Part shown: positions 10,101-38,993 of the stretch, piece after piece
Numbering within the stretch: the stretch's first letter is position 1
Layout of the letters: each line of letters starts with the position of its first letter
From: Escherichia phage PBECO4
DNA: 64,000 nt
Strand: one strand, 5' to 3'
Sequence record: KC295538
Made by a program: the position numbers and the translations under genes
Notes under the pieces: generated by a model
The model's input: only the letters and a program-made list of their open reading frames with translations
What the model was told of the DNA's origin: nothing
Database searches by the model: none

Positions 10101-10743
10101 GAATATTGTACAAAGTGTATGCAGTTATTTTAGAACTCTTTTTAAATTCATCATAGAGAAAATTCAAAATTCTGGAGCATTCAATATACTTTTCAATATC
10201 TTTATGGATTAATGAGTACTGAAACATTAAATCAGATGATATATTGTAGGTACTACCTTTTAAACTGTTTAAAATATCACAGATTTCAGGGTTTACGGGT
10301 ACTTCGTCAAAATTATCATCTAAAACATTTATTTCAAAATCAAAGCCATCTTTGTTTTTGATTAATTTGATAATAGAATCACCATAAACATTATATTGTT
10401 TTAATGGATTTACTACAATGTTAAAAAGATTGGATGTATTACAATCAATATCCATAAAGTATGTATTATCATTGTACTTAATATTGAAACATCCGTACTC
10501 AATAAAATCACCCGGAGTTATTGATGAGTTTCTTCTCGTTTCAACATAAGAAGCTTTAATGTTGTTTTTATGTAAAAGAGTAATAAATTTCTTAGACTGT
10601 TTAGCACCAGCTAAGTAAGTATTATAACTTGGTCTTTTAAAGATTATAGGACTAGACTTCTCTCCAGAGAAATATTTTTTTATAAATTTACGTTGTTTAA
10701 CAAAATAATTTTTATAAAACAAACCTAATTTTGATTTCATCAT
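10081..10743 (-). CDS. hypothetical protein (220 aa)
   Basis: Track ORF; SD AAGGAG 6 nt upstream of ATG 10743. Confidence 0.7.
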   Translation of the reverse strand: MMKSKLGLFYKNYFVKQRKFIKKYFSGEKSSPIIFKRPSYNTYLAGAKQSKKFITLLHKNNIKASYVETRRNSSITPGDFIEYGCFNIKYNDNTYFMDIDCNTSNLFNIVVNPLKQYNVYGDSIIKLIKNKDGFDFEINVLDDNFDEVPVNPEICDILNSLKGSTYNISSDLMFQYSLIHKDIEKYIECSRILNFLYDEFKKSSKITAYTLYNIPKMVNL

Positions 10744-10757
10744 AACTCCTTATACAT

Positions 10758-10777
10758 CCAGTACTTAATAGTACTGG
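10758..10777. terminator. hairpin CCAGTACTTAATAGTACTGG with T-run on plus side (possible terminator)
   Basis: Perfect 8-bp stem, followed by TTTTTT on plus strand. Confidence 0.5.
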
Positions 10778-10785
10778 ATTTTTTA

Positions 10786-11157
10786 TTATGACATACGCTT
10801 ATTATGAATGGAATTATGAATGGATTTTAAATAATTATATAATTTTATCAATCCACTACCAGTAGCTACAAACAGTAGTGCTGTTGGTATCATACATCCA
10901 AACATGGTTATTAATTCATGTATTTCCATACCATCACTATTTGGTCCCACATCAAATATAACAACCAAAACAACACCTAAAATGCTTAGACAATAATATC
11001 CCATAAAGACCATAAAAGTGATATATCCGGCACTTGATTTAATATTACATAACATATTATACACTGGATTAATACAGAAGAAGTATAATAACCATACCAG
11101 TGTTCCAGTACTGAACATAATAATTGAAATAATGGAAAATATCTCACGGTAACTCAT
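10786..11157 (-). CDS. small integral membrane protein (family M)
   Basis: 123-aa hydrophobic ORF in tandem with similar ORFs. Confidence 0.65.
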   Translation of the reverse strand: MSYREIFSIISIIMFSTGTLVWLLYFFCINPVYNMLCNIKSSAGYITFMVFMGYYCLSILGVVLVVIFDVGPNSDGMEIHELITMFGCMIPTALLFVATGSGLIKLYNYLKSIHNSIHNKRMS

Positions 11158-11158
11158 A

Positions 11159-11521
11159 TTATTTCCTCATACCCAAACGTTGGTGGATTTCAGAGATCTT
11201 TATATACAATAGTACCACAAGGTGCAGTACTAAACAACATATAATTACGGCTAATACCAATGAACATATCATAAGACCAAAGGTTATTGTATTCAAAGAG
11301 GATGTGAACAGTCCAATTATTAATACAATAAAACCAAAATTGAATACTGTACCCAACACAGTATATGCTGGACTATATCTCTTTTGGATTACATCATATA
11401 TATTTGATAATGGTCGCTTATGGAAGTACTTCCCAATGCACACGAATGCATTCAGTGAGAAGATAAATGTATACGCCATTACTAGTAATTGACCAACGAA
11501 AGATAATTCTATCCCGTTCAT
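11159..11521 (-). CDS. small integral membrane protein (family M); start set at ATG 11521 with GAGG upstream
   Basis: Track ORF 11159..11584 overlaps upstream gene; internal ATG at 11521 has an SD. Confidence 0.6.
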   Translation of the reverse strand: MNGIELSFVGQLLVMAYTFIFSLNAFVCIGKYFHKRPLSNIYDVIQKRYSPAYTVLGTVFNFGFIVLIIGLFTSSLNTITFGLMICSLVLAVIICCLVLHLVVLLYIKISEIHQRLGMRK

Positions 11522-11522
11522 A

Positions 11523-11891
11523 CTAACCTCGTTTACGTTTTTTAATTGTACTGTGCATCTTTTCGAAATAGGGAACCAAAACATATTGAACAGTTTGCCA
11601 GATAACCATTAGATTATGCACTGCACCACCAAGGATACCAAACACTAGAACAATAATTGCCATAATAGGATCACCGTCTACCATACCCCATTTAAAGATA
11701 TGTAAAATCCAAGCAATGACTAGACAAAATAAACTAAGCCAATACGTAATGAAAAATCCGGCTTGTAATTCATAATCATCAGCAATTTCATCGTATACCG
11801 TTTCTAAAAATGATACACAAAAGAATTTACCAATTATAACCACAGTACTAATAAACAGCATAGCAGTTAAGATAATAAGAGCAATTTCCAT
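11523..11891 (-). CDS. small integral membrane protein (family M)
   Basis: 122-aa ORF, several hydrophobic segments. Confidence 0.65.
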   Translation of the reverse strand: MEIALIILTAMLFISTVVIIGKFFCVSFLETVYDEIADDYELQAGFFITYWLSLFCLVIAWILHIFKWGMVDGDPIMAIIVLVFGILGGAVHNLMVIWQTVQYVLVPYFEKMHSTIKKRKRG

Positions 11892-12205
11892 TACATCCCT
11901 CGTTTACGCTTTTGATTGCGTCTAAATTCTGTTAGTCTACGGCTAATCGGCGGCATCAGACTACATAAAAAAGTAACAGTTGTTGGTAGTAACATCAAGT
12001 CAATCATTGCAGTGTTATTTGGTGGATCAAACACCAAAAAATACACACAAGAAACACTAATAATGGTTGAACCGATAAAAGGAATACAAAATTCTTTTAT
12101 CTGTTTTTCAACATAATCAAACATCTTGAGTACAAATAAAAATCCAACCCAACACATAATGAAATAGAATGAATACAACGTGTAAATCAATGTTACTATA
12201 TCCAT
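11891..12205 (-). CDS. small integral membrane protein (family M)
   Basis: 104-aa hydrophobic ORF ending in a basic tail. Confidence 0.65.
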   Translation of the reverse strand: MDIVTLIYTLYSFYFIMCWVGFLFVLKMFDYVEKQIKEFCIPFIGSTIISVSCVYFLVFDPPNNTAMIDLMLLPTTVTFLCSLMPPISRRLTEFRRNQKRKRGM

Positions 12206-12543
12206 TAGTACCTCGCATCAGGAACTTTAGCACGTAACTTATGAACGACTGGGAACAACAACAAACTTACATATGCAATAGTTGAACCCCAATAGAATAC
12301 TAATACAATTGGTTCACCATTAGAACGGAAACCTCTACTAATCATTGAGTAGTGAATAATAGGCATAATCATCGCCATACCAAACCATGCGTGTAATTTT
12401 AATTGCAGCATGTTATCAGCGATGAATACTGAAATTGGTCGTTTAAAGAACCACATCAGAAAGTAGAATCCAGCACTAATAATATAGTACATGGTACTAA
12501 CTTTCATATACCACGGCAGTAAATCAATAAAGTACTCCATCAT
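12205..12543 (-). CDS. small integral membrane protein (family M)
   Basis: 112-aa hydrophobic ORF. Confidence 0.65.
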   Translation of the reverse strand: MMEYFIDLLPWYMKVSTMYYIISAGFYFLMWFFKRPISVFIADNMLQLKLHAWFGMAMIMPIIHYSMISRGFRSNGEPIVLVFYWGSTIAYVSLLLFPVVHKLRAKVPDARY

Positions 12544-12887
12544 TCCTCCGGTATCTTGTTTCGAAGTTCAATCATAACACAACATAGTTTAATGAACAAG
12601 TAAAAAACTACACATATCATACCCAATGTACCGTAAACTGCGGAAAATGCGGGTAGTACCTTTCCTGTGAGTGTTGCCACAATACATGCCATCAATGTTG
12701 ATGCAAACATCGATTGATTAATGACAGAATTCATAAAATCTTCACCTTTACGTTTATAGAATTGTCTTTTAAAATACCATCCTAGAAACATAACTACCCA
12801 AAATGTTACATAAGTTGTTAAAATAATCCCTGCAAGTGAATGTGCAACTGGACTACTCCTTAAAAACTCAAGATAAGCTTCAAACAT
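12540..12887 (-). CDS. small integral membrane protein (family M)
   Basis: 115-aa ORF, C-terminal ...ELRNKIPEE tail shared with paralogues. Confidence 0.65.
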   Translation of the reverse strand: MFEAYLEFLRSSPVAHSLAGIILTTYVTFWVVMFLGWYFKRQFYKRKGEDFMNSVINQSMFASTLMACIVATLTGKVLPAFSAVYGTLGMICVVFYLFIKLCCVMIELRNKIPEE

Positions 12888-13225
12888 TAGAAGTCTCCGC
12901 GAATTTTATCTCTACCATGAATAATGAGATGGATTAAGTATACACCTAACCAAATGAACAACCCCAAGAATACAATATATTGTGAGATTGAGTTCAAGTG
13001 AGGATTAGCACAATAAATTAAGTGTGCCATAAGACCAACAATTGCAAACAAACCTTGAACAAGTGTGTAAAGAATTAGTGATGAATTCCTTACTGGATAC
13101 AGTTTAAAAACAATTTTCTTTTTAAAATACCATAGTACTACAACTAGTGCATGATAAAAGAAAAAACCAAAAAGATAAATCAAAGTAATACTAATCATTG
13201 TATCTGATTTAAAAAATTCTAACAT
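12887..13225 (-). CDS. small integral membrane protein (family M)
   Basis: 112-aa hydrophobic ORF. Confidence 0.65.
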   Translation of the reverse strand: MLEFFKSDTMISITLIYLFGFFFYHALVVVLWYFKKKIVFKLYPVRNSSLILYTLVQGLFAIVGLMAHLIYCANPHLNSISQYIVFLGLFIWLGVYLIHLIIHGRDKIRGDF

Positions 13226-13254
13226 TGGAAATCCTCTGATATTAAACTTCTGTT

Positions 13255-13283
13255 ATAGTACTACACGTTGTTAGTACTGTCAA
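13255..13283 (-). promoter_or_regulatory. sigma-70-like promoter (TTGACA-17-TACTAT)
   Basis: Minus-strand TTGACA at 13283-13278, -10-like box at 13260-13255. Confidence 0.45.
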
Positions 13284-13290
13284 TATTGAA

Positions 13291-14061
13291 TTAAATTTTT
13301 TCAAGGAACAAGTTTTCGCACTGTTCTTCCCAATCGTATGGGTTGTTGTTATATACTGCCGAAATCAACAGTGGCATACGCAGTGAAGGTGAACGAAGAG
13401 AATCTTCGTGCTTCAACATCCAGTTCAGAATTGCTTTACTACCATTACGGTTAATACCCTTAGATTCTAAAATGTTAGTCTTATTCATCACGTTCTCAAT
13501 GTGAATCATGATATCGCTTTTGGTCTGAATCTGTAAGTCAACGTATACAGAACGAGACATAAGAGCAGCATAGTGAGCAGACATTTTCGTTTTAGCTTTA
13601 GAATCTAATGCTAAATCTTTGTTAGTAATGAATACAATACGACCGTTGAAATCAAAGCTGTTAGGGATACCGTTGGTGCTCAGGTACTTAGAGCTAGTCA
13701 TATAAGACACGGTACGCTTACCACTATCTAGTACTGCTTTGAGCAGGTTCATACCGTCTTCTGAATCAAAGATGCTGTCCATATCATCCAGTACTAATAC
13801 GTTGGTGCTATGACGATTCTTGTACAGAACTTCGTACAGAGCCAGAGTAGTCATTTTACCACTGATGGTAGCTACGTTCCATTCTGCTGCGTCATGAGCT
13901 TTCTGGAGGCGTTTAGACAGGGTGTAAGTCTTACCAACACCAGGAGCACCACTGACAACCATACTTTTTACAGTACTGCTATCGTCGAGCAAACACTCAA
14001 GAGCAACCATCATGGAGTTGAAGTTTTTCTGAATTTGAATGCTACGTGCTTCTCTGGTCAT
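13291..14061 (-). CDS. P-loop NTPase (Walker A GAPGVGKT, Walker B VLVLDDMD), function unknown
   Basis: Motifs read directly in the 256-aa translation; GAGGA SD upstream. Confidence 0.75.
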   Translation of the reverse strand: MTREARSIQIQKNFNSMMVALECLLDDSSTVKSMVVSGAPGVGKTYTLSKRLQKAHDAAEWNVATISGKMTTLALYEVLYKNRHSTNVLVLDDMDSIFDSEDGMNLLKAVLDSGKRTVSYMTSSKYLSTNGIPNSFDFNGRIVFITNKDLALDSKAKTKMSAHYAALMSRSVYVDLQIQTKSDIMIHIENVMNKTNILESKGINRNGSKAILNWMLKHEDSLRSPSLRMPLLISAVYNNNPYDWEEQCENLFLEKI

Positions 14062-14089
14062 TTCGTTATCCTCATCAGTTGATGAAATA

Positions 14090-14122
14090 ATTATAGCAAA
14101 AAGGGCTGACCGAAGTCAACCC
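14090..14122 (-). promoter_or_regulatory. terminator-promoter cassette: hairpin GGGTTGAC-UUCG-GUCAGCCC embedded in TTGACT-18-TATAAT promoter
   Basis: Hairpin 14103-14122; -35 at 14119-14114; -10 at 14095-14090. Confidence 0.7.
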
Positions 14123-14236
14123 TTTTTATAAACATATTTAATACACACAATTACCCATATCAATATTTTTACCATTATAGGTAATAATATATTTTATCTT
14201 ATTAGGTTTAATAACAAAAACTTTTAATTTTTGTAT

Positions 14237-14464
14237 TCAATTTATCATTTGAAAAATAGTATACGAACCACTTCCATCTTTAAATACTTCTTGACTTTCA
14301 AACATAAACTTCTTTCCATCTATTTTTGCTGTTTGTGTTGTTACATCCAAATACAAATTGTAGATAGTGTCAGTTTTTGTGGATTTACATGTTGTTGATG
14401 CTTCAGTTTTTGCATTCACTGTTGTTGATAAACACATTAACAAAACTAACATTAACTTTTTCAT
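14237..14464 (-). CDS. small secreted protein (N-terminal signal peptide)
   Basis: MKKLMLVLLMCLSTTVNAKTEAS... Confidence 0.65.
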   Translation of the reverse strand: MKKLMLVLLMCLSTTVNAKTEASTTCKSTKTDTIYNLYLDVTTQTAKIDGKKFMFESQEVFKDGSGSYTIFQMIN

Positions 14465-14484
14465 TTTAATTAACCTCTTTTGTT

Positions 14485-15624
14485 TTACAAAATTACTTCA
14501 CCAAAAATACCATTGATATCACGTTCAATGATGTATTCACCTTCATGTTCAGCTAAGAACTTTTTAATGGCTTCGTTAACTTTAGGACGATGAATGTTGT
14601 TGAATGTTTCAGTGCAACCATCTCCCTTTTCATAATAACCTTTATTATATAGTTTACCACATAACGCAATTGTATGTATTATTATTTCCAATTCTCTAGC
14701 AAGTTTCCCACCCACATTCTTATGAAATAAAATGGAAATTTCATTACTCCAAAAATTATCTACTTTATATATTTTTTTATAAGATAAGTTTTGTGGACTT
14801 AATCTTGCTTTAATAGTTTTGTTTGTAATACCAGCTTTATCCGAATTTTTTGCATAATCATTGTGAATATAAAATCTTCCAGGCTTGGAAGTTTTAAATC
14901 CTTTTACTGCACACGTGGGACAACCAGAACCAGACAGATGTGAATTTGGTGTTTGTTGAAATTCACCATGTTCTTTGCATATTATAATAGAGGTTACTTG
15001 GTTGTTAATGTAGTCATATAAAGAATAATCATACTTATTTCCGTGTATAAGATGTGATTTTTTTATAAATTCACCTAAAGTTTGTTTTAAAGTTTGTTTC
15101 GTGCATTCTTGACAACCAATTTTACCAGTAGCTAAGTCAGTAATTGTGGGTTTTTTTATATCACCACAATCATTACATACTACTTCAATTTTAGTTCTAC
15201 TAGGAAGTGTAGAGTTAAACGAAGTTATTCCACTATAAGTAAATTTATCATAACCATATTTTTTGTTGATGACACTAATATGATTAATGGTGTAATATGG
15301 AATATTAATAATATTGTAAAAAATCTTCCCATTAAATCCCTGCCTAATAAAATTCGTGCAGGTGGCTCCAATAACTAACATACCATCGTTATTCACTACA
15401 AGTTTGGTTTTTGATTTAGATATATAATCTTGTGATCTATTGATATAGAATCCAAGAACTCTTGGATCATTTATTTCACCCATAATACTAATAGGATCTT
15501 GAGCAATGTTGGATTTTTTTACAAAATTTATATCTTCGGCTTTCATCCACTCAAAAAGCATTCCATGCTCTTCATAAAAATAAACTTTTTCACCATCTTC
15601 ATTAAAATAGTACTGTTCAAACAT
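14485..15624 (-). CDS. Cys/His-rich protein, possibly a zinc-binding nuclease (379 aa)
   Basis: CNDCG..GCQEC and ICKEHGEF...HLSGSGCPTC clusters; AAAGGAG SD. Confidence 0.5.
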   Translation of the reverse strand: MFEQYYFNEDGEKVYFYEEHGMLFEWMKAEDINFVKKSNIAQDPISIMGEINDPRVLGFYINRSQDYISKSKTKLVVNNDGMLVIGATCTNFIRQGFNGKIFYNIINIPYYTINHISVINKKYGYDKFTYSGITSFNSTLPSRTKIEVVCNDCGDIKKPTITDLATGKIGCQECTKQTLKQTLGEFIKKSHLIHGNKYDYSLYDYINNQVTSIIICKEHGEFQQTPNSHLSGSGCPTCAVKGFKTSKPGRFYIHNDYAKNSDKAGITNKTIKARLSPQNLSYKKIYKVDNFWSNEISILFHKNVGGKLARELEIIIHTIALCGKLYNKGYYEKGDGCTETFNNIHRPKVNEAIKKFLAEHEGEYIIERDINGIFGEVIL

Positions 15625-15853
15625 TACTTAAAACTCCTTTCCAGTACTGAACCCGTCCAGCACCATTAATCTTAGCTTGAATCTTATCTTTTTCGACAAG
15701 ACCTTCTTTGAAATCTATGGACGTATTATCGCACTTAATTACATCTAAGTCAAGTACTTCTTGTGTACTTAATGAAGTATTATCTGCAATTTGTTGTAAA
15801 GTAATTACATCAGTACCGAAGAATTCAGCTAATCGTATAAAAGATAGTTTCAT
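15617..15853 (-). CDS. hypothetical protein (78 aa)
   Basis: Track ORF with AGAGG SD; downstream of cassette promoter. Confidence 0.6.
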   Translation of the reverse strand: MKLSFIRLAEFFGTDVITLQQIADNTSLSTQEVLDLDVIKCDNTSIDFKEGLVEKDKIQAKINGAGRVQYWKGVLSNV

Positions 15854-15879
15854 TTGTTACCTCTTGTGTTGATGAAATA

Positions 15880-15912
15880 ATTATAGCAAAAAGGGCTGAC
15901 CGAAGTCAACCC
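15880..15912 (-). promoter_or_regulatory. terminator-promoter cassette (copy 2)
   Basis: gatgaaataattatagcaaaaagggctgaccgaagtcaaccc; -10 at 15885-15880, -35 at 15909-15904. Confidence 0.7.
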
Positions 15913-15918
15913 TTTATG

Positions 15919-16278
15919 TTATTCTAATTCACTCATAGTACTAATAGTTAATCCCATTTCTTCTGCAATGTTGCATAACAGACCAACTGCATTGCGAAGA
16001 ATATCAGTGTTATCCACCGAGAATGATGAGTTTTCATTTACCGTTGAAGACTCAATGTAGTACTCAAAATAACGAGAAGTTGAACGCACAACTTTAACAC
16101 CTTCATACTTCTGTAGTTCAGAGTTGATACGCTCGATGAGCGAATCTTCCAGTACTCGATAGTCACCATTCATTCCACGTTTCCATCCATCAGCAGGACG
16201 GAAATAAAAAGTTTTTGTACGTTGAATTGTTGAGATTGTTAGTGGGTTGTATTCCGCGATTTCACTTAAAGATGCCAT
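15919..16278 (-). CDS. hypothetical protein (119 aa)
   Basis: Track ORF, SD TGAGGA. Confidence 0.65.
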   Translation of the reverse strand: MASLSEIAEYNPLTISTIQRTKTFYFRPADGWKRGMNGDYRVLEDSLIERINSELQKYEGVKVVRSTSRYFEYYIESSTVNENSSFSVDNTDILRNAVGLLCNIAEEMGLTISTMSELE

Positions 16279-16340
16279 ATTGTATTCCTCATTTTCTTTG
16301 TTACATGATACTGAAAGATAAAACTGGTGTCAATGTTTTT

Positions 16341-16775
16341 TTAGATCATAGAACGATAATACTCAGGTAACTCAACATCAGTAAATTTATACCACTTAGG
16401 CTTCATCTGGAGCTTCTCAATCAAACGCTCACGAGAGGTTTTAATTTCTGATTCAGATGGTACGTAATCATTACAAAACTCAGCAGGGAAGCTGCTAATG
16501 TCGTTTACTTCAGTGTTTTGAATCTTCATACCACGACGCAAACATTCGTTGACAATATCGATATGACGCTTCTGTAAGTACAGCAACTTGTCGTAAAAGA
16601 ATGTCACATGACCTGAACCCAACAGATAAGTACTGTTAATTTTGAAATCACGTACACGCTTACGTGCTTGAACGTGTTTTTGTACAGCACCAAATACACG
16701 TGGGAGTTCACGATATTCAGCCATCAGGTGTTGGTCAGCAAGTTCTTTAACGTGTACTAAGTTAATGCGTGTCAT
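16341..16775 (-). CDS. denV: pyrimidine-dimer DNA glycosylase, T4 endonuclease V homologue
   Basis: [49 protein letters not shown] matches T4 DenV as I recall it, over the full 144 aa. Confidence 0.85.
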
Positions 16776-16803
16776 GTATTCATCCTCTCGTTTCGATGAA
16801 ATG

Positions 16804-16836
16804 ATTATAGCAAAAAGGGCTGACCGAAGTCAACCC
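16804..16836 (-). promoter_or_regulatory. terminator-promoter cassette (copy 3), upstream of denV
   Basis: -10 at 16809-16804, hairpin 16817-16836, -35 at 16833-16828. Confidence 0.7.
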
Positions 16837-16842
16837 TTTTCT

Positions 16843-17130
16843 TTATTCAATGATCCCCAACTTCACAATCTCATACCCGTCCAGATAGCCATATGAACAC
16901 TCAGGAGTTTCATAGGATGAACCATCATGGATACCCTGGCATTGACTTTTAGAATTCTCAAGAAGTCGTTGCAGTACTGATACGTCCTCAAGAACGTAAC
17001 ACAAGGATACATCTGGGTCTTCCACGATACAGTACTCCAACATATCAAACGTATCAATCGAAATTTCAACCTTGGCAAATCGTTTCTTTTCTTTATTATA
17101 CAGTGCGTACATATTAATCTCCATAATCAA
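16843..17130 (-). CDS. hypothetical protein (95 aa)
   Basis: Track ORF. Confidence 0.55.
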   Translation of the reverse strand: MIMEINMYALYNKEKKRFAKVEISIDTFDMLEYCIVEDPDVSLCYVLEDVSVLQRLLENSKSQCQGIHDGSSYETPECSYGYLDGYEIVKLGIIE

Positions 17131-17485
17131 GTTTAACTAACTTACCACCCAGATACCCAAAGTTTTCTGGCTTCACATCTGAATAGAAGAAGTCAGTACT
17201 TAACTCTGAATTTAATGCTAAAGCACACAACTCCACCCAAAATAAACCCCTATGTTGCACTGGCTTACAACGTTTCTGTACTGTTATTAAACCAGTGCAT
17301 GATGACCACAAAGTAGGGCAGATACCACTATCACTACGATTGGAGTACTGCATCCATGAACGTTCATTGAGGTTAGCTATCATTCCAGTTAGGAATAACT
17401 TCCAGCTTTTGAAGGTTGGAATCTTAATAGCGTATTCCCCAATGAGGATAACAGTTCGGGTTGCACCTTTCAAGTCTATGTTCAT
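17114..17485 (-). CDS. small protein with protein-kinase-like motifs (YAIK, DVKPEN, DYG)
   Basis: GEYAIKIP ... SDVKPENFGYLGGKLVKLDYGD has the catalytic-loop-to-DFG spacing. Confidence 0.5.
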   Translation of the reverse strand: MNIDLKGATRTVILIGEYAIKIPTFKSWKLFLTGMIANLNERSWMQYSNRSDSGICPTLWSSCTGLITVQKRCKPVQHRGLFWVELCALALNSELSTDFFYSDVKPENFGYLGGKLVKLDYGD

Positions 17486-17674
17486 ATTAATAAGAATCAG
17501 ATTCCCAGTACTCGATTGCTTCTTTCAGCAATTCTTTAGCACGTTGTTTTGCAATGCGAGCGGGAAACTGATATGTGTACATTAACTGACGCTTCACTTC
17601 ATTCAGTGAAAGCTGTTCATGGTACAGTGCATCCATCAGTCGATTACGAGTACGTAGTTTCATATAAGTTATCC

Positions 17675-18229
17675 TTATTTCAAAGAATCATAGTAAGCAG
17701 TGTCAAAGATTGGAGTCATAATAACATAGTCAATACGGTCAATGTAAGTTGAACTCCACATTTCTGGTTTGTCATATAACTGACGCTCGCGTTCATTCAT
17801 ACGAGTCAGTACTTCTTCCAATTTACTACGTGAATCCATCAATGTATTACTCGAACCATAAGTGAAGTACTCAGTCCAATGATATTCATATTCAGTACTG
17901 ATAGATTGAATAGTACCATCTTTGAAATGAGCTAAGGCATAACCTTTCTCTACAAAGTTATCAGGTGGAAGAACACCATCTGGATTAGTTTTCAATGCTT
18001 GTGCTAACTTTTCTTTAATTTCAGTTAACGTGCATACTGAACGAATGTTCTTCAGGTTTGATACTTGAAAATCACTGTACTTTCCAAAGAAAAATACACG
18101 CCAATCTTTAGGTTCATTATCAGATACGGTAGCATCAGGGTGATGGGCGAGTAAACGAAGAAGGCCAGCTTTGTGACCGTTAATGTAGATTTCATGGATG
18201 TGGTTAGCAGTTTTCTTAAAAGTAATCAT
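17675..18229 (-). CDS. hypothetical protein (184 aa)
   Basis: Track ORF, GAGGA SD. Confidence 0.7.
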   Translation of the reverse strand: MITFKKTANHIHEIYINGHKAGLLRLLAHHPDATVSDNEPKDWRVFFFGKYSDFQVSNLKNIRSVCTLTEIKEKLAQALKTNPDGVLPPDNFVEKGYALAHFKDGTIQSISTEYEYHWTEYFTYGSSNTLMDSRSKLEEVLTRMNERERQLYDKPEMWSSTYIDRIDYVIMTPIFDTAYYDSLK

Positions 18230-18276
18230 GGTAGTTCCTCGATTGTAGGGATGAGAAGTTCATCCCCTTGATAAGC

Positions 18277-18304
18277 ATTATACAGTACTGAATGTGTTTG
18301 TCAA
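18277..18304 (-). promoter_or_regulatory. sigma-70-like promoter TTGACA-16-TATAAT with CAGTACTG abutting -10
   Basis: Minus strand TTGACAaacacattCAGTACTGTATAAT. Confidence 0.65.
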
Positions 18305-18305
18305 C

Positions 18306-18701
18306 TCAAAATAAATTCATTTCATGTGCGTATTGTGGTTCAAGATAAGATAAGTTTTTGAAACTGTCTTTCAATTCTGCATCATCTACGTACACAGTAC
18401 CAGGTACATTCCCCATAGTGAAGCCAACCCAAACAGTCATGTTTCCAGTTCCTAAGCGGGGCATTGATAGCGTCCCGTCAGGTGAAACATCAAACGCTAC
18501 ACTAAAGTCATCCGTTACAACTTCCGAACCATTTTCCAGAATAATACAACCACGTTCTTTAAGCTTCTGAATGTGGATAGCAGCCTCTACAGCACGTTTA
18601 AAGTTATAATAAGACTCTTTATCCTCGAACATTGATTGTTTAACCAGACGCTTGTTTAGCTCGGTTACTTTGTGCATTTGACGCATTACTTCAACTCCCA
18701 C
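18306..18701 (-). CDS. hypothetical protein (131 aa)
   Basis: Track ORF. Confidence 0.65.
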   Translation of the reverse strand: MGVEVMRQMHKVTELNKRLVKQSMFEDKESYYNFKRAVEAAIHIQKLKERGCIILENGSEVVTDDFSVAFDVSPDGTLSMPRLGTGNMTVWVGFTMGNVPGTVYVDDAELKDSFKNLSYLEPQYAHEMNLF

Positions 18702-18940
18702 AGTTGTAGAATTTCATAAGAGCCTGGTGGTGCTGGATTGATAATCTCAGGGTATTCAGTACTGTTAGGATTACCACCAGCATTGAACTCAGCAAGTAAT
18801 AATTCGAGTTCATTCCTATCATGTACAACAAACACGCAATATCCAGTTCCTTCTTCAAGAACTGTAGTTGACCCCGCACAATCCCATACGGTATCAATAC
18901 ATAATAATTCTTTAGTGTTTTTATTACGCAACGCAAACAT
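18686..18940 (-). CDS. hypothetical protein (84 aa)
   Basis: Preferred over overlapping 18691..18993 frame on composition. Confidence 0.5.
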   Translation of the reverse strand: MFALRNKNTKELLCIDTVWDCAGSTTVLEEGTGYCVFVVHDRNELELLLAEFNAGGNPNSTEYPEIINPAPPGSYEILQLWELK

Positions 18941-18949
18941 ATATGTCTC

Positions 18950-19318
18950 CTATCGATTCGGCATATTCTTTCGTAGTCGCAAGAGAAATTCAACCACTGA
19001 CCATGTTGTAATGAAGGCTATATAAGTTGCAAGGAATCCAGTAAGAATAAATGCAACCAGCGTACTACCATTTGGGGAATCAGTTTTAATGCCGATGACA
19101 CCATCGGCTACAGTGAAACATGTAGCCATTAATGTGTAACCTACGTACAACACAAAGAAAAACTCATTCTCCATTGAAGGATAGAAACGGTTAAACACTT
19201 TATAAAATTTAAAGTACAGTAGGATTATACCAACAAAGGCATAGAATGTAAACAGTGTTGTTATAATATATGAGATTAGGTTCAAATTATACATATCAAC
19301 GCTCCGGTAGATTATCAC
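18950..19318 (-). CDS. small integral membrane protein (family M)
   Basis: Hydrophobic 122-aa ORF ending ..RLRKNMPNR. Confidence 0.65.
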   Translation of the reverse strand: MIIYRSVDMYNLNLISYIITTLFTFYAFVGIILLYFKFYKVFNRFYPSMENEFFFVLYVGYTLMATCFTVADGVIGIKTDSPNGSTLVAFILTGFLATYIAFITTWSVVEFLLRLRKNMPNR

Positions 19319-19643
19319 GTAATGTTTTAATTCGATGATACATTTTCATACCAATATTACCAAAGATACCATATCCAAGTACTAAAATGTATGCAATAAG
19401 CATAGTAATAATTACTATAGTGCCAAAACTATAATGTACACTACTGATACCCATTGTAGTTTCAACGATTATTTGAGAAACTGAAAGAATCAAAAGTACA
19501 ACTACAATTGGATGATTTGGGTACATTCGGTTGAACAACGTTTTGTACTTAAAGAAGCACAGTACTCCACCGAATAAGAAGTAAACAATGTAAATGCAAG
19601 CAACAGCATAGGCAAACATGTTAGTGTAATAAATCATTACCAA
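19296..19643 (-). CDS. small integral membrane protein (family M)
   Basis: Hydrophobic 115-aa ORF ending ..LRDNLPER. Confidence 0.65.
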   Translation of the reverse strand: MVMIYYTNMFAYAVACIYIVYFLFGGVLCFFKYKTLFNRMYPNHPIVVVLLILSVSQIIVETTMGISSVHYSFGTIVIITMLIAYILVLGYGIFGNIGMKMYHRIKTLRDNLPER

Positions 19644-19646
19644 TCC

Positions 19647-19985
19647 TTACTTTTCAGGGATATTAGAACGCCATATATCAATGCGATGAACTAGTCCAAA
19701 GAACAACCATACTGGAACGGCAGCTATCATAACAACAAATGAAAACCCAGTCAAGACCGATACCAGATTTAATTCATCAGTACTATACCCACATATCAGT
19801 ACTTCTAATATTCCCCACGTACATGCACAAAACATCAAGAATGAAATTGGGGCATCATAGTAGATACGTTCATATAAAGTAGTGTATCGGAAGAATGCAA
19901 TAATGTAGCAAAACATATAATACACCCAAACCAAAGATACTACATAAAATGATACTTTGTTTATTAATTCAAAATATTGTTCCAT
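19647..19985 (-). CDS. small integral membrane protein (family M)
   Basis: Hydrophobic 112-aa ORF ending ..WRSNIPEK. Confidence 0.65.
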   Translation of the reverse strand: MEQYFELINKVSFYVVSLVWVYYMFCYIIAFFRYTTLYERIYYDAPISFLMFCACTWGILEVLICGYSTDELNLVSVLTGFSFVVMIAAVPVWLFFGLVHRIDIWRSNIPEK

Positions 19986-19987
19986 TT

Positions 19988-20269
19988 TTACCCCAATATA
20001 TATTCAGAGAGTAATGTATTAGCTTCATCTTTGTTCTTAAGGTAATACATGTAATATAGATTCGGTTCACCATCTTTAGCACTCAAATCGAAGTACTTTA
20101 AACTATGTACTTTCATAGTAAAAACAAATAATGACTTAAAACCAATCTCACCGTACTTAATAAACAGTTCATCCAAATGAATGTAACTTTTTGATTTGGA
20201 TAATTCTTTAACGTCTGCATCAATTTCAGATAAAAGATGCTTACCTATTAAGTTTTCAAATGAACGCAT
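19988..20269 (-). CDS. hypothetical protein (93 aa)
   Basis: Track ORF. Confidence 0.6.
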   Translation of the reverse strand: MRSFENLIGKHLLSEIDADVKELSKSKSYIHLDELFIKYGEIGFKSLFVFTMKVHSLKYFDLSAKDGEPNLYYMYYLKNKDEANTLLSEYILG

Positions 20270-20331
20270 GATTTTTATCCTTTACCGCAATTTTTATGGT
20301 TTATTAAGAATACACCAGAATATCAGTTCTG

Positions 20332-20973
20332 TCAATAAAAAACTGGATCTTCTTCAGTAATTGGTATTTCTCTACGTACATCACACGAAAGAGGATCAGT
20401 AATGAATACATTCCCATCTTTATCCATCATCACATTACTTGAATGAATGTCTGGTACAAAACGCCCGTGAAACTCTTTCATGATGTTAGCAGCGACCGTC
20501 GCAATAGCAATCTCTTCAGAATTTCCACGCATATCATTCACTGAAGTAGCGTACTGACCAGCATGTGCATAAGAATATAAATCTCCAATTTTAGTACTAA
20601 CAAAGTCATCATAATTATTTTTTTGTTTAATTATAGGATAGTACTTGTCCATCTCATACCATCCAAAGTTTCCTTGTTCGTTTGCACTGTAGATCACTGG
20701 AAGAAACTTGGTTCCTGCGTTTTCAATGCAGTACTTTGCATAAGCACGAAAACCATCCCAGCGTGAAGTGGTTACTTTAAATGCACGCCCAGGATAGTTT
20801 TTATGTTCAACTACTACAGAGTACATCCCCATTCCAAGCAAAGTAAGTCCAGCAGCTTTAACTTGTGGAAAGATTACGCGTTCAGCATAAGGAATATCAA
20901 ACTCCATCGCACAACGAGTTTTTGATGGACGCAAAATGTCAATTAAAGTTTTGAATATTTCTTGCTTAGTCAT
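20332..20973 (-). CDS. protein-kinase-like fold protein (start moved to ATG 20973 with GAGGA SD)
   Basis: C-terminal DIHSSNVMMDKDGNVFITDP resembles the HxDxxxxN...D catalytic motif of atypical kinases; track start 21006 overlaps the promoter -10. Confidence 0.55.
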   Translation of the reverse strand: MTKQEIFKTLIDILRPSKTRCAMEFDIPYAERVIFPQVKAAGLTLLGMGMYSVVVEHKNYPGRAFKVTTSRWDGFRAYAKYCIENAGTKFLPVIYSANEQGNFGWYEMDKYYPIIKQKNNYDDFVSTKIGDLYSYAHAGQYATSVNDMRGNSEEIAIATVAANIMKEFHGRFVPDIHSSNVMMDKDGNVFITDPLSCDVRREIPITEEDPVFY

Positions 20974-27124: not shown

Positions 27125-27364
27125 TTTGTTTTGAAGTTCTTGAACTAATTGTCGTACTTCGTTAATATTTTTACACTGCTTTACAGTGAAGTAATCATAC
27201 TTACGACCATAGGTTCTTGGGTCATCACCTTCCATATACTGCTGCACATCAAAGATTTGTAAGTAGGGATGCTGCATAACACGAATATTATCACTTTGAT
27301 AAATCAACATAATATCAATCCTTATATTTACACAAGCCACCAAAACTAGTTTCTTTAGCACCAC
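27119..27364 (-). CDS. hypothetical protein (81 aa)
   Basis: Track ORF; stop lies inside cassette hairpin. Confidence 0.55.
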   Translation of the reverse strand: MVLKKLVLVACVNIRIDIMLIYQSDNIRVMQHPYLQIFDVQQYMEGDDPRTYGRKYDYFTVKQCKNINEVRQLVQELQNKG

Positions 27365-27665
27365 GACGCATCATAACTAATTTAGCATATTGTGTGCCAT
27401 TACTATCTTCATATACATCTACTTCAATAAACGCTAAGAAGTTAGGGTCTGTGTCGTTAGAAAACTCAGTGAAGCTAATGTCGCCTACTGTATGCTCTTT
27501 AACAAACGTATATGATTGTCCATCAATATATACAATATCTCGATCGTCACTATCACCTTGATAGATATGTTTAATATTACCATCTGTACAAACTAAACCT
27601 TCCAATGGTTCAGCATATGACAATCCACACATTAACATACATACAAAAAATAAAATAATTTTCAT
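27315..27665 (-). CDS. small secreted protein (signal peptide)
   Basis: MKIILFFVCMLMCGLSYAEP... Confidence 0.6.
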   Translation of the reverse strand: MKIILFFVCMLMCGLSYAEPLEGLVCTDGNIKHIYQGDSDDRDIVYIDGQSYTFVKEHTVGDISFTEFSNDTDPNFLAFIEVDVYEDSNGTQYAKLVMMRRGAKETSFGGLCKYKD

Positions 27666-27667
27666 GA

Positions 27668-28045
27668 TTATTTTCCTCCAACGTTAAGTGATTTCTTGTA
27701 CTGATATTCTTTATAAGTACTATACCATATATCACCAACGTAAATCAAGTACCACGTAGCAGGATAAAGAGCCAATCCAGTACTGATGTATACGAACTTT
27801 TGGTCAAGGACATCAAATACATACAGAAGGAAAGTTACTCCCATAATGCAAGAACAAATTAACCACAAGTTATAAGCAATCGAATCGCAAGCAAAAATAG
27901 AATCAAGCTTAGAAATTAGGACATATTTGTTTGTTAAAATGAAATGAATTACTGCAACTAAACAATATCCTGCCATAAAAATAGAAATTAAAAAAGACAG
28001 AATAATTGGAATATTCAACAACAAAAGTAAAATAGTGTTTACCAT
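27668..28045 (-). CDS. small integral membrane protein
   Basis: 125-aa hydrophobic ORF. Confidence 0.6.
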   Translation of the reverse strand: MVNTILLLLLNIPIILSFLISIFMAGYCLVAVIHFILTNKYVLISKLDSIFACDSIAYNLWLICSCIMGVTFLLYVFDVLDQKFVYISTGLALYPATWYLIYVGDIWYSTYKEYQYKKSLNVGGK

Positions 28046-28055
28046 TTTTTAAGTC

Positions 28056-28415
28056 CTATATTTCACAGTGTAAGTTCAATTTATCTATATCTAGGTCACG
28101 GCGTACCGATGAGTCCAAGTAAATTACTATATAGATATCACCATTACCAGTTCTTGGGTCTACAATTAATATTACGTTTGCTAATGTACCAGAATCATCT
28201 CTATAAGTCGAGATTTTTTTATTACCGATAATACTTTCTACTTTAAAACGATAAATCACACCATCAACAACTATATTTTTACCATTTCTAGGGTCGTTAG
28301 TCAATACATGCCACGTTCCCTTAGTACTACGACAATATGTTTCTGCTGCTGCACCATAACTAAAACATGAAAATAATGCACACACAAGTGCTATTAATTT
28401 TATATAACTCTTCAT
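28056..28415 (-). CDS. small secreted protein (signal peptide)
   Basis: MKSYIKLIALVCALFSCFSYGAAAE... Confidence 0.6.
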   Translation of the reverse strand: MKSYIKLIALVCALFSCFSYGAAAETYCRSTKGTWHVLTNDPRNGKNIVVDGVIYRFKVESIIGNKKISTYRDDSGTLANVILIVDPRTGNGDIYIVIYLDSSVRRDLDIDKLNLHCEI

Positions 28416-28493
28416 AACAAACCTCTAACGAGAAATACTTCTGTACTATATATATGTACAGAAGTATTTAATACTATAGAGATATTTTCACTG

Positions 28494-28820
28494 TTACATC
28501 TTATTCGTGAACTTGAATTTGATAATATCAATCCAAATTTTAACATTTCCTGCAAATAGTGCTTTGATTAGCCACATAATTGCAACAAAGTTCTCAACTA
28601 AATCCAAAGTTTTAACTACTGCACCGAGTGGGAAGATAAAACTCAAAACCCATACAATTACTGAAACCACAACGACTGCATAGAAAATACGCACAATCGG
28701 TGAATCAAGCATAAACAACTCAGAGAACTCTTTTTTATCATTATCATCAGTAATAAAGCATTCGTAAACCAGAAGCCAAATCAGAATTAAAGACGGAATT
28801 GAAATTAGTACTGATAGCAT
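28494..28820 (-). CDS. small integral membrane protein
   Basis: 108-aa hydrophobic ORF. Confidence 0.6.
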   Translation of the reverse strand: MLSVLISIPSLILIWLLVYECFITDDNDKKEFSELFMLDSPIVRIFYAVVVVSVIVWVLSFIFPLGAVVKTLDLVENFVAIMWLIKALFAGNVKIWIDIIKFKFTNKM

Positions 28821-28877
28821 ATTTTTTACCTCAAGTTTAAGTGTTAAGTTTCAGACTACAGGAACCATTATACAGTA

Positions 28878-29120
28878 CTACGAACGTTTGTCAACATTTG
28901 TTTCTTCAATAAGCATAAGATAACTTAACACGAAGAGTAATACCGAAATAATATCAATAACCGTAAAGCTCACGGGAATAATAATAGACACTAGAACGAG
29001 TGCCACGTTTAGCAAGAATACAGTAGTGAGATCTACCATCGTTCGTCTAGTGGCTAATGCCACTAGTGTAGGATAGAACATAAACAATAGTGCAACAACA
29101 AAACTTAGTACTAGATACAT
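28878..29120 (-). CDS. small integral membrane protein
   Basis: 80-aa hydrophobic ORF. Confidence 0.55.
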   Translation of the reverse strand: MYLVLSFVVALLFMFYPTLVALATRRTMVDLTTVFLLNVALVLVSIIIPVSFTVIDIISVLLFVLSYLMLIEETNVDKRS

Positions 29121-31325: not shown

Positions 31326-31541
31326 TCACACTGCCACTCCTAATAGGTCGGTAGCTTTCTTGAGTACTACGTCAATGGTTTCCAGTACTGCACCTTTGTG
31401 TTCAATTGATACAATATTATTATAAGTATCAAGGTCCAAGTACTCCATATATTCAGTTTTGAATACACGAACATCAGTACTAGTGATTTTAATATCACAA
31501 CCTTTATCCCAAATAACCTGCATCATTTCATTGGTAGTCAT
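31326..31541 (-). CDS. hypothetical protein (71 aa)
   Basis: Track ORF. Confidence 0.55.
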   Translation of the reverse strand: MTTNEMMQVIWDKGCDIKITSTDVRVFKTEYMEYLDLDTYNNIVSIEHKGAVLETIDVVLKKATDLLGVAV

Positions 31542-31816
31542 TATTCAACCTTATCATAAACAAGTTTGTGTGTGCTTAGTACTTTGTTGTGATGTCCAGG
31601 GCATTCATATACATACAATCGCTCCTGTCGTTTTTCCCAACCACCACAGATACGACCTGATTGTGTACATACCTCATACTCGTTAATAAAAGACTTACCT
31701 GTGAATGTACAATCCTGACGAACTAAGTCTTTTGCACTAAACCTGCCGTCATCATTACATGCTGTAAGAAACATTGTACAGAATACAAAGACAACTGTCA
31801 ATAGTTTTTTAATCAT
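31541..31816 (-). CDS. putative lipoprotein (lipobox LTAC)
   Basis: MIKKLLTVVFVFCTMFLTACNDD. Confidence 0.6.
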   Translation of the reverse strand: MIKKLLTVVFVFCTMFLTACNDDGRFSAKDLVRQDCTFTGKSFINEYEVCTQSGRICGGWEKRQERLYVYECPGHHNKVLSTHKLVYDKVE

Positions 31817-32183: not shown

Positions 32184-32429
32184 TTATTCTCCATGAATTA
32201 CGGAAGTGTTGATTCGTGTTTTACCGCTAGTGTATCCAGTACTTGTATTTGCATTAGGACAGTACACAGTGTATAAAGTCGCACCAGCACCATCTTGTTG
32301 CATACGATAAATCTTACACCCTGCTTCTTTTAATTCAGCAGGTAGAACAAAATCACTTGTACGTTCTTTGGTAGAAGCATCACATGCAGTGAGTAGAAAT
32401 GCGACGAGTACTGCTACGATATATTTCAT
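32184..32429 (-). CDS. putative lipoprotein (lipobox LTAC)
   Basis: MKYIVAVLVAFLLTACDAS. Confidence 0.6.
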   Translation of the reverse strand: MKYIVAVLVAFLLTACDASTKERTSDFVLPAELKEAGCKIYRMQQDGAGATLYTVYCPNANTSTGYTSGKTRINTSVIHGE

Positions 32430-38148: not shown

Positions 38149-38574
38149 TCAAGTATTTTTAGTACCTTCTTCTGCCATTTTTGTGATATACCAATTAAGT
38201 ACTGATTTGTGTACCATAAAAAATGTGAATGCAAATATAGCAATAGCTGCTGATGTAACACTATTAGATAATGACCCAAGTTGGATGTTAGTACCTAAAA
38301 TAACAATAAATGGATACAACACAATCAATCTACTGTAAGGTTCGTCTCCAGTATCACGGAGAAATCCAAGCCTTTCATGATCAGTATCCATAGTGACAAT
38401 TGGACAGAACATAAGTGCAGACATAAGAGCAATACCAATTTGTGCTACATTGGAAATTGTAAACCACAAAGGATTTAAACCATATGAAATATTATTTTCT
38501 GTACAGTAGTAACCAAACGAATTGAATGCACAAACTAAAAATACAAAAATACAAATCTTATTATAGCCTCTCAT
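38149..38574 (-). CDS. integral membrane protein (141 aa)
   Basis: Multiple hydrophobic segments. Confidence 0.65.
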   Translation of the reverse strand: MRGYNKICIFVFLVCAFNSFGYYCTENNISYGLNPLWFTISNVAQIGIALMSALMFCPIVTMDTDHERLGFLRDTGDEPYSRLIVLYPFIVILGTNIQLGSLSNSVTSAAIAIFAFTFFMVHKSVLNWYITKMAEEGTKNT

Positions 38575-38993
38575 TTGTTTAGCTCCGTTAATTTTCGTTT
38601 AACTTCTAGATCATGAAACTCATCGGCATATGAGTTTTGAACAGTTCTGATGTATTCCAACATAACAAACATAGTTCCACATACCCATAGATATGTATAG
38701 TAATCAAATACAAATGCATATAACATACACGGTACTAAAATGAAAGTGTAAACAAAACTATATCGTGTAGTTCCAAATACTTTCAGATATAACAAACGTC
38801 GATAATCACGGGCAAATGTATTGATGCACACTGAAAATGTAATTAATGTATACCATGAAATACCCTGAATTAAACCTGAAACATTTAAAAGTTTATGTTC
38901 ATCGGAAAACCCCAGTGCATTTAGCACTGGAGCCATAACCCAACCAATAATACTAATAAGAAAAAGATATTTTGCATTACTTAGTGTGAACAT
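38571..38993 (-). CDS. integral membrane protein (140 aa)
   Basis: Multiple hydrophobic segments. Confidence 0.65.
   Translation of the reverse strand: MFTLSNAKYLFLISIIGWVMAPVLNALGFSDEHKLLNVSGLIQGISWYTLITFSVCINTFARDYRRLLYLKVFGTTRYSFVYTFILVPCMLYAFVFDYYTYLWVCGTMFVMLEYIRTVQNSYADEFHDLEVKRKLTELNK

Follow-up and report, generated by a model that had tools for sequence, protein, structure and literature searches.

The 64,000-nucleotide (nt) stretch of the Escherichia phage PBECO4 genome analysed here (sequence record KC295538; hereafter the window) carries two runs of small membrane-protein genes on its minus strand. An earlier note on this DNA, made from the sequence alone, had described seven consecutive genes and three more as related to one another and had considered superinfection exclusion or envelope remodelling as their function. 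All ten open reading frames (ORFs) that it had placed there were present on the minus strand, and their products were 104-123 amino acids (aa) long. They were numbered A1 to A7 in the main array (10786-13225) and B1 to B3 in the second cluster (18950-19985). The genes are listed with their transmembrane (TM) segments, the residues following the first of these (TM1) and the C-terminal tail, whose types I and II are described below.

12887-13225, minus strand: A7, first gene of the array; 112 aa, three TM segments; post-TM1 LWYFKK; tail RDKIRGDF (type I variant); PHROG 19454; RaK2 ORF311 is the orthologue
12540-12887, minus strand: A6; 115 aa; post-TM1 GWYFKR; tail RNKIPEE (type I)
12205-12543, minus strand: A5; 112 aa; post-TM1 MWFFKR; tail RAKVPDARY (near type I)
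11891-12205, minus strand: A4, the most divergent of the ten; 104 aa, three TM segments; tail FRRNQKRKRGM (type II, basic)
11523-11891, minus strand: A3; 122 aa, three TM segments; tail MHSTIKKRKRG (type II)
11159-11521, minus strand: A2, start ATG at 11521; 120 aa; tail IHQRLGMRK (type II)
10786-11157, minus strand: A1, last gene of the array; 123 aa, three TM segments; tail IHNSIHNKRMS (type II); RaK2 ORF315 is the orthologue (E 1.5e-22)
19647-19985, minus strand: B3, modelled with AlphaFold; 112 aa; post-TM1 AFFRY; tail RSNIPEK (type I); PHROG 19285
19296-19637, minus strand: B2; 113 aa; tail RDNLPER (type I)
18950-19294, minus strand: B1; 114 aa; tail RKNMPNR (type I)

The genes A5 and A6 overlap by 4 nt (ATGA), and the codons of the A6 tail (CCGGAGGA) double as the Shine-Dalgarno sequence of A5. 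The start of A2 at ATG 11521 agrees with the annotation of phages 121Q and ph0011, while a longer ORF from 11584 overlaps A3 by 62 nt. For B1 and B2, the most probable start codons are ATG 19294 and ATG 19637, respectively.

A megablast search of region 10000-20500 against GenBank phages produced matches to Asteriusvirus genomes (121Q, phAPEC6, ph0011, WPEC3 and others; approximately 350 kb) with 87-99% identity, in pieces. The gene order in the annotated ph0011 and 121Q regions was identical to that of the window, which therefore belongs to a jumbo coliphage of the 121Q/PBECO4 type, an Asteriusvirus. The 121Q counterparts, every one of them annotated as a hypothetical protein, are gp232-gp225, the extra copy gp224, and gp209-gp207. 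Comparison with ph0011 (73-88% aa identity) produced ratios of non-synonymous to synonymous substitution rates (dN/dS) of 0.13-0.36, which showed that the ten ORFs are genuine coding genes under purifying selection. The constraint is somewhat weaker than that on the soluble neighbour genes, most of which had a dN/dS of 0.05-0.18 against the same phage. Nine of the ten proteins were assigned to PHROGs, in seven families (27618, 26405, 33258, 27396, 19046, 19454 and 19285) which are all of unknown function; A2 had no PHROG match. In addition, A6 weakly cross-matched PHROG 16874, a membrane protein family.

Relatedness, architecture and spread of the ten proteins

Among the ten proteins, BLASTP found only B1-B3 to be clearly alike (B2-B3 E 2e-9). 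All other pairs had E-values of 0.002-10, and pairwise identity was just 10-25%. Since these pairwise results were too weak to decide on relatedness, profile methods were used instead, with the homologous regions of ph0011, 121Q, phage A4, JNE01, RaK2 (Klebsiella), Hallingskeid (Erwinia) and a metagenomic contig (L008) for comparison. Alignment of the orthologue groups with hhalign produced probabilities of 97% for B1-B2, 96% for A5-A6 and B1-B3, 91% for A6-B2 and 90% for A2-A3. Weaker links were obtained for A7-B2 (80%), A6-A7 (73%), A1-A3 (57%), A2-A6 (48%) and A4-A6 (22%). Five other membrane ORFs of the window, which had been put forward as further members of the same set (27668-28045, 28494-28820, 28878-29120, 38149-38574 and 38571-38993), served as controls and never exceeded 7% with any A or B group.

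The iterative searches showed the same separation. Seeds B3, A6, A3, A4 and A1, run with jackhmmer against all 562 ORFs of the compared loci, each converged on essentially the same 79-80 ORFs. This set consisted of the ten window genes and the arrays of other phages and held none of the control ORFs, and even the most divergent member, A4, retrieved the entire family. For a leave-out test, the family hidden Markov model (HMM) was rebuilt ten times without the orthologue group of the gene in question, the B genes being removed jointly. The left-out window proteins scored 19-49 bits (E 3e-5 to 2e-14; A3 49 bits, A1 41 bits, A4 24 bits), whereas none of 482 non-family ORFs scored above 15.6 bits. 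The full-family HMM retrieved exactly ten ORFs from the window at 53-82 bits, and the next ORF scored 6 bits. Overall, the hhalign, jackhmmer and leave-out results establish that the ten genes are paralogues, as had been proposed. The same results place the five control ORFs, which are indeed membrane proteins, outside the family. The controls were not clearly related to one another either (hhalign 9.5% between two ORFs of the 27668-29120 group, C1 and C2, and 1.3% between the two of 38149-38993, D1 and D2); four of the five fell into separate PHROGs of unknown function, and the 80-aa ORF at 28878-29120 had no PHROG match.

The idea that these are unrelated hydrophobic ORFs or non-genes, alike through composition alone, could draw on the 10-25% BLASTP identities and the mostly insignificant E-values, but it is refuted, and deserves practically no credence, because the leave-out scores separate the ten from 482 ORFs that include the five controls, five independent jackhmmer seeds reach one common set, dN/dS is below 0.4 in all ten genes and orthologues occur in at least five lineages.

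In a hydropathy scan with a 19-residue window, eight of the ten proteins had three distinct hydrophobic segments; in A5 one segment was above threshold and in A6 two. An alignment of 75 family sequences has three hydrophobic blocks, and A5 and A6 fit that profile. Three TM segments are the architecture of each protein. In the same alignment, lysine and arginine (K+R) content peaks directly after TM1 and in the last 15 residues, with the consensus L-W-F-F-K-x-x-x-f-x-k-x-Y after TM1 and L-x-k-l-R-x-K-I-P-e-r in the tail; the loop between TM2 and TM3 is short and neutral to acidic. The family-wide post-TM1 motif W-[FY]-F-K-[KR] is strongest in A5-A7 and B1-B3 and degenerate in A1 and A4. From the K+R distribution and the positive-inside rule, the predicted topology has a short periplasmic N-terminus, a basic cytoplasmic loop 1, a short periplasmic loop 2 and a basic cytoplasmic C-terminal tail.

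The AlphaFold2 model of B3, built from a 28-sequence alignment, had a mean predicted local distance difference test score (pLDDT) of 82 and a predicted template modelling score (pTM) of 0.61. It contains helices at residues 2-31, 35-41 (short, in loop 1), 45-65 and 74-107, and the I-P-E-K end is disordered. The best match of the model in BFVD was a 120-aa protein of 121Q (TM-score 0.62), which, judged by its length, is probably gp231, the A2 orthologue. Identity between orthologues was 0.51-0.60 for the N-terminus, TM1 and loop 1 compared with 0.38-0.44 for TM2, loop 2 and TM3. The paralogues showed the same ranking, with 0.15-0.26 and 0.09-0.12, respectively.

The ten proteins had been said to share a basic tail of the form R-x-(N/K)-(I/M/L)-P-(E/D/N). 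The exact pattern was found in four of them only (A6, B1, B2 and B3), each time with a single residue following it at the C-terminus, and nowhere else among the 264 long reading frames of the window. A5 (RAKVPD) and A7 (RDKIRGDF) carry near variants of this type I tail. A1-A4 have a different basic tail (type II) which consists of [IMF]-[HR]-x-x-hydrophobic followed by K/R residues. The motif therefore marks a subfamily and not the whole family. This split was seen in every lineage, with P-E/D or I-x-G-D-F endings in the promoter-proximal genes and H/R-x-x-hydrophobic-basic endings in the distal genes.

Where the next start lies at -4 to +1 nt, P-E is spelled CCGGAG, which provides the Shine-Dalgarno sequence of the next gene. 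CCGGAG was found in 7 of 25 P-[EDN] tails, six of these with the next start at -4 to +1 nt, while the remaining 18 tails use 12 other codon pairs. The P-E tail as the sole by-product of the next gene's Shine-Dalgarno sequence was rejected on the count of these 18 tails. Since 13 different codon pairs encode it in all, the P-E/D tail is selected at the protein level, with the Shine-Dalgarno sequence as a second constraint on part of the tails.

An exhaustive HMMER scan of 1.84 billion cluster representatives, with a profile of six type I window proteins and six close relatives, produced just 21 clusters at E ≤ 0.001. The 18 clusters retrieved were 89-124 aa long with recognisable post-TM1 and C-terminal motifs. 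A word-indexed homologue search had found 18 proteins, all Asteriusvirus-like; the exhaustive scan added a few diverged clusters to these, all of approximately 110 aa and none with a functional annotation. A tblastn search for relatives of A7 hit only Asteriusvirus-like records of Escherichia and Salmonella and RaK2-like phages of Klebsiella, and the best viral structural neighbours of the B3 model were paralogues of 121Q, Pectobacterium phage CBB and Cronobacter phage GAP32. No bacterial homologues were seen in these searches; one cluster labelled Escherichia coli sits on a contig of 347,819 bp, which is the size of an Asteriusvirus. The family is confined to RaK2-like jumbo phages.

RaK2 ORF309-315 had their best matches, in order, with A6, A6, A7, A5, A4, A3/A2 and A1. 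This positional orthology means that the duplications are older than the split between Asteriusvirus and RaK2. The type I to type II polarity of the tails was also kept in Hallingskeid and in L008. The number of related small membrane proteins is indeed unusual, with ten within 10 kb in the window, and the arrays of all related lineages examined hold 7-11. Turnover of copies was modest; extra copies were found of A7 in 121Q and ph0011, of A4 in JNE01 and of A6 in RaK2, and the B cluster holds one to three copies among phages. In 121Q, the A4 orthologue (7536-7851 of the 121Q locus) is split into gp228 and gp229 by a 1-nt insertion, one additional T at position 165 as counted on the window gene; the split reflects either an error in sequencing or a true pseudogene. 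In Hallingskeid, ORFs 3724-4038 and 13743-14111 had the top non-family scores of the leave-out test (9-16 bits). One lies just past the array end and the other downstream of the kinase, beside an Imm-like gene, and both may be very diverged family members.

Taken together, the ten proteins are very probably paralogues of one ancient, fast-evolving family of approximately 110 aa and three TM segments which is specific to RaK2-like jumbo myoviruses.

The record of ph0011 (OP557969.1) carries the notes Phi92_gp231, 233 and 234 on the ATPase upstream of the array, the A7 orthologue and the neighbouring gene. These were rejected as annotation artefacts, as the phi92 genes so named are unrelated short ORFs, and the family HMM found no member in phi92. 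A published description of the family, or expression data for it, was not found in the literature on 121Q, RaK2, Asteriusvirus, tandem small membrane proteins or NrdC.10.

Genomic neighbourhood and expression context

The features that flank the two runs are as follows.

20307-20335, minus strand: sigma-70-type promoter match, upstream of the 93-aa gene
19988-20269, minus strand: o93, the 93-aa gene, which heads the run o93-B3-B2-B1
14090-14119, minus strand: sigma-70-type promoter match, TTGACT-18-TATAAT with extended TG, upstream of the ATPase gene
13291-14061, minus strand: NrdC.10-like P-loop ATPase, 256 aa, PHROG 1250, directly upstream of the array
13255-13283, minus strand: sigma-70-type promoter match, TTGACA-17-TACTAT, in the 65-nt gap between the ATPase gene and A7
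10756-10779, no strand assigned: 10-bp hairpin of two AGTACT sites, just 3' of the A1 stop
10081-10743, minus strand: 220-aa soluble ORF, PHROG 34359, unknown function; follows the array in Asteriusviruses

The stop-to-start distances were -1, -4, -1, -1, +1 and +1 nt in the A array and +2, +9 and +1 nt in the B run, and every start in both runs has a recognisable Shine-Dalgarno sequence. Such packing, with these Shine-Dalgarno sequences, would imply co-transcription of the genes and probably coupled translation. The 220-aa ORF is probably the last gene of the array transcript. The hairpin at 10756-10779 was ruled out as a minus-strand terminator because it has no T-run and the Shine-Dalgarno sequence and ATG of the 220-aa ORF follow it directly.

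The array directly followed a 254-258-aa ATPase in seven of seven lineages examined, with 57-98% identity to the window ATPase. The gap between the ATPase and the array was only 1-4 nt in Hallingskeid and L008. A search of IMG/VR with the ATPase as query found related loci only in 121Q and RaK2. Over approximately 80% of its length, the ATPase shares approximately 40% identity with NrdC.10 homologues from T4-like phages, and it belongs to PHROG 1250. T4 NrdC.10 is an uncharacterised AAA-type ATPase (PMC1524935). The nrdC.10 locus of Bp7, the sole T4-like locus examined, differs in that no array stands downstream: NrdC.10 is followed by unrelated nrdC.x ORFs and no family member was found there (best score 10 bits).

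The ATPase of the window had 98% identity with the phage A4 copy but only 58-59% with the copies in ph0011 and JNE01. For A7 the reverse was found, with 47% identity to phage A4 and 78% to ph0011. The ATPase thus exists as two deeply diverged alleles which are shuffled among Asteriusviruses and whose flanking array is oppositely related, and recombination must have had a breakpoint in the stretch from the ATPase to A7.

A gp0.7-like kinase is encoded upstream of the B cluster. The neighbourhood of gp0.7-like kinase, denV and NrdC.10 homologue mirrors the early region of T4. Hallingskeid carries its Imm-like gene in the kinase-downstream slot that corresponds to the B cluster of the window, and the Imm-like protein had no relative in the window. 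This early region also encodes further membrane proteins as well as secreted and lipobox proteins. Three small proteins with signal peptides (14237-14464, 27315-27665 and 28056-28415, all on the minus strand) appear weakly paralogous, with a BLASTP E-value of 1.5e-5 for the 116-aa and 119-aa proteins and 0.025 for the 75-aa and 119-aa proteins. Their PHROGs, 27330 and 25709, are both of unknown function. They may form a second envelope-directed paralogue family which is interleaved with the membrane ORFs. In addition, the translations of two ORFs at 31541-31816 and 32184-32429 (minus strand) have lipoprotein-like N-terminal signals that end in L-T-A-C (MIKKLLTVVFVFCTMFLTAC and MKYIVAVLVAFLLTAC); these would add to the envelope-targeted content of the early region.

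Between the denV region and the ATPase, a 379-aa HNH/homing-endonuclease-like ORF was identified at 14485-15624 (minus strand; PHROGs 681 and 559). The same slot holds gp221 in 121Q and, in phAPEC6, gp019c, which is annotated as exonuclease ABC C subunit. The slot looks like an insertion hotspot for mobile elements. At the other end, genes on the plus strand (1-10100) for RCC1-like repeat proteins, named DNA condensation protein in 121Q, converge on the array end; their phAPEC6 homologues, gp003-gp010, are virion proteins (PMC7247149).

The palindrome AGTACT was the most over-represented hexamer of the window, with 176 sites compared with 18.4 ± 4.4 in dinucleotide-preserving shuffles. The extended palindrome CAGTACTG occurred at 35 sites where approximately 0.8 were expected. 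The AGTACT sites were distributed over the codon phases as 64/31/45, and 36 of the 176 were intergenic; their presence in all codon phases and between genes indicates selection on the DNA and not on codons. AGTACT was also over-represented in the loci L001 (ph0011), L003, L004, L005, L007 (Hallingskeid) and L008. The excess of 8-21-fold is common to RaK2, Hallingskeid and the metagenomic contig L008, and it was absent from T4-like Bp7 and from phi92. No mention of this over-representation was found in the literature. The palindrome may serve throughout the clade as a signal for binding, modification or packaging. There are 13 close AGTACT pairs in the window. They include the hairpin beyond A1 and a pair at 13257-13278 in the promoter match that precedes A7, where it falls within the spacer and the -10 element (cAGTACTaacaacgtgtAGTACTat).

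Functional interpretation

The searches of known families returned little for the ten proteins. No Pfam model scored above threshold, the best being O-ag_pol_Wzy, SUR7 and DUF350 with 14-16 bits against cut-offs of 26-30. There were no matches in NCBIfam, holin models included, none to PDB sequences at E ≤ 1 and none to PADLOC at E ≤ 0.01 for the nine proteins scanned (all except B2). None of the ten matched Imm_superinfect (PF14373) at E ≤ 1.

Tentatively, and well short of even confidence, we favour the reading that the ten proteins are early inner-membrane effectors in the manner of T4 Imm, which would exclude other phages and/or block host membrane proteins. The host RNA polymerase would transcribe the ten genes early from the sigma-70-type promoters, as two tightly packed and probably translationally coupled runs, one from the ATPase through A7 to A1 and one of o93-B3-B2-B1 after the gp0.7-like kinase. 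The proteins would enter the host inner membrane within minutes of infection. The shared TM1, the W-F-F-K-K/R motif and the amphipathic basic tail could then form a common cytoplasmic face for anchoring or partner binding. More speculatively, the variable hairpin of TM2, periplasmic loop and TM3 might give each copy its own intramembrane target. The net outcome would be an inner membrane that is taken over or sealed, with the DNA entry of other phages blocked and/or host membrane proteins neutralised. On this reading the ten proteins are neither virion components nor a lysis system.

Several observations are circumstantially compatible with superinfection exclusion or envelope remodelling, and that interpretation, as raised in the earlier note, is plausible. 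They are the sigma-70-type promoter matches, the B cluster downstream of the kinase, the predicted inner-membrane location and the absence from the virion proteome. Small membrane proteins are easily missed by mass spectrometry, which qualifies this last point. The table of 62 virion proteins of phAPEC6 lacks the orthologues gp012c-gp017c, gp028c and gp029c, and holds none of gp011c-gp031c (PMC7247149, Table 1). The modest turnover in copy number, the other envelope-directed proteins of the region and the Imm-like gene in the matching slot of Hallingskeid also speak for the effector reading, as does the contrast between constant and variable parts. Like the family, T4 Imm is small (approximately 80-120 aa), mostly embedded in the membrane, non-virion and encoded in the early region of a T4-related myovirus. 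Unlike the family, it is a single gene and not one of ten paralogues, and it lacks the conserved cytoplasmic motifs. It also has fewer helices than the three of the family.

Other points weigh against the effector reading. The promoters are consensus matches only, and the region has 68 such matches in total compared with 56 expected from shuffles. Neither sequence nor fold comparisons linked the family with Imm, Sp, Cor, Sie or other exclusion proteins. The predicted periplasmic exposure is small, approximately nine N-terminal residues and a loop of 8-11 residues, which leaves little direct contact with the proteins of an incoming phage. TM segments tolerate substitution in any case, so that the variable hairpin may merely reflect weak constraint. 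Rapid turnover is the usual expectation for exclusion or arms-race genes, but gene order and 1:1 orthology were largely kept between Asteriusvirus and RaK2. This stability of order and the apparently stoichiometric co-translation fit a multi-subunit assembly better than independent effectors.

Such an assembly is the main rival to the effector reading. The paralogues would be subunits of one hetero-oligomeric inner-membrane complex (a channel, pore or scaffold) built early in infection, possibly with the NrdC.10-like ATPase. We regard this as possible, if doubtful. Near-stoichiometric co-expression would be expected from the spacing of -4 to +1 nt in the A array; positional orthologues and the tail polarity are kept in Asteriusvirus, RaK2, Hallingskeid and L008; and every paralogue is under purifying selection. 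The conserved cytoplasmic face of all copies could be a common contact surface, and the ATPase adjoins the array in all seven lineages (1-4 nt away in Hallingskeid and L008). However, the discordant histories of ATPase and array (98% and 58% for the ATPase against 47% and 78% for A7, in phage A4 and ph0011, respectively) argue against tight co-evolution of the two. NrdC.10 itself occurs in more than 1,000 records of T4-like phages, of which Bp7, the only such locus examined, has no array. The copy number also varies, with the duplications of A7, A4 and A6, one to three B copies and the frameshifted A4 of 121Q, and three members stand in a separate cluster 6 kb away. A bolder form, in which the 7-11 colinear paralogues with their two tail classes make a single phage-built inner-membrane machine, possibly energised or organised by the ATPase, specific to RaK2-like phages and with no described counterpart, would be improbable.

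It is likewise unlikely that the proteins inhibit defence or stress systems of the host at the membrane, with a different host membrane effector or sensor as the target of each copy. The early host-takeover context, the many diverged copies with a constant and a variable part, and the large counter-defence repertoires that jumbo phages generally carry would all suit such inhibitors. On the other side, the proteins scanned (all except B2) have no similarity to PADLOC models or known anti-defence proteins, and the orthologue set is stable across phages of Escherichia, Klebsiella and Erwinia despite the differing defence repertoires of these hosts. The conflict systems of jumbo phages are reviewed in PMC7824862.

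A role as holin- or antiholin-like proteins in lysis timing is very unlikely. The family resembles class I holins such as lambda S in size (approximately 105-125 aa), three TM helices, the predicted topology with N-terminus out and C-terminus in, and a highly charged basic C-terminus. It differs in that class I holins have a late, endolysin-adjacent context, whereas the family has an early one with sigma-70-type promoter matches, is present in ten copies per genome and matched no Pfam holin family even at E ≤ 1. No lysis gene is found nearby, and in 121Q the predicted endolysin gp532 is far from gp224-232 (PMC5259590).

The PHROGs keep the family as separate groups, and its unity and its two tail classes are new here. 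At least seven PHROG families of unknown function are merged into one superfamily with a defined topology, two conserved cytoplasmic motifs and a fixed address after NrdC.10. Small membrane ORFs are known to abound in the early regions of T4-related phages, and a sharply defined family of such a known kind, small early phage membrane proteins, will not surprise phage specialists. Jumbo phages of the RaK2 and 121Q type are under development for therapy, and more than 80% of their genes still lack a functional assignment; approximately ten hypothetical genes per genome now become a single testable unit. If the proteins form one complex, they would represent a new virus-built membrane structure. 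If instead they act in exclusion or block the host membrane, this would have a bearing on the design of phage cocktails and on the means by which giant phages secure their host cell soon after infection.

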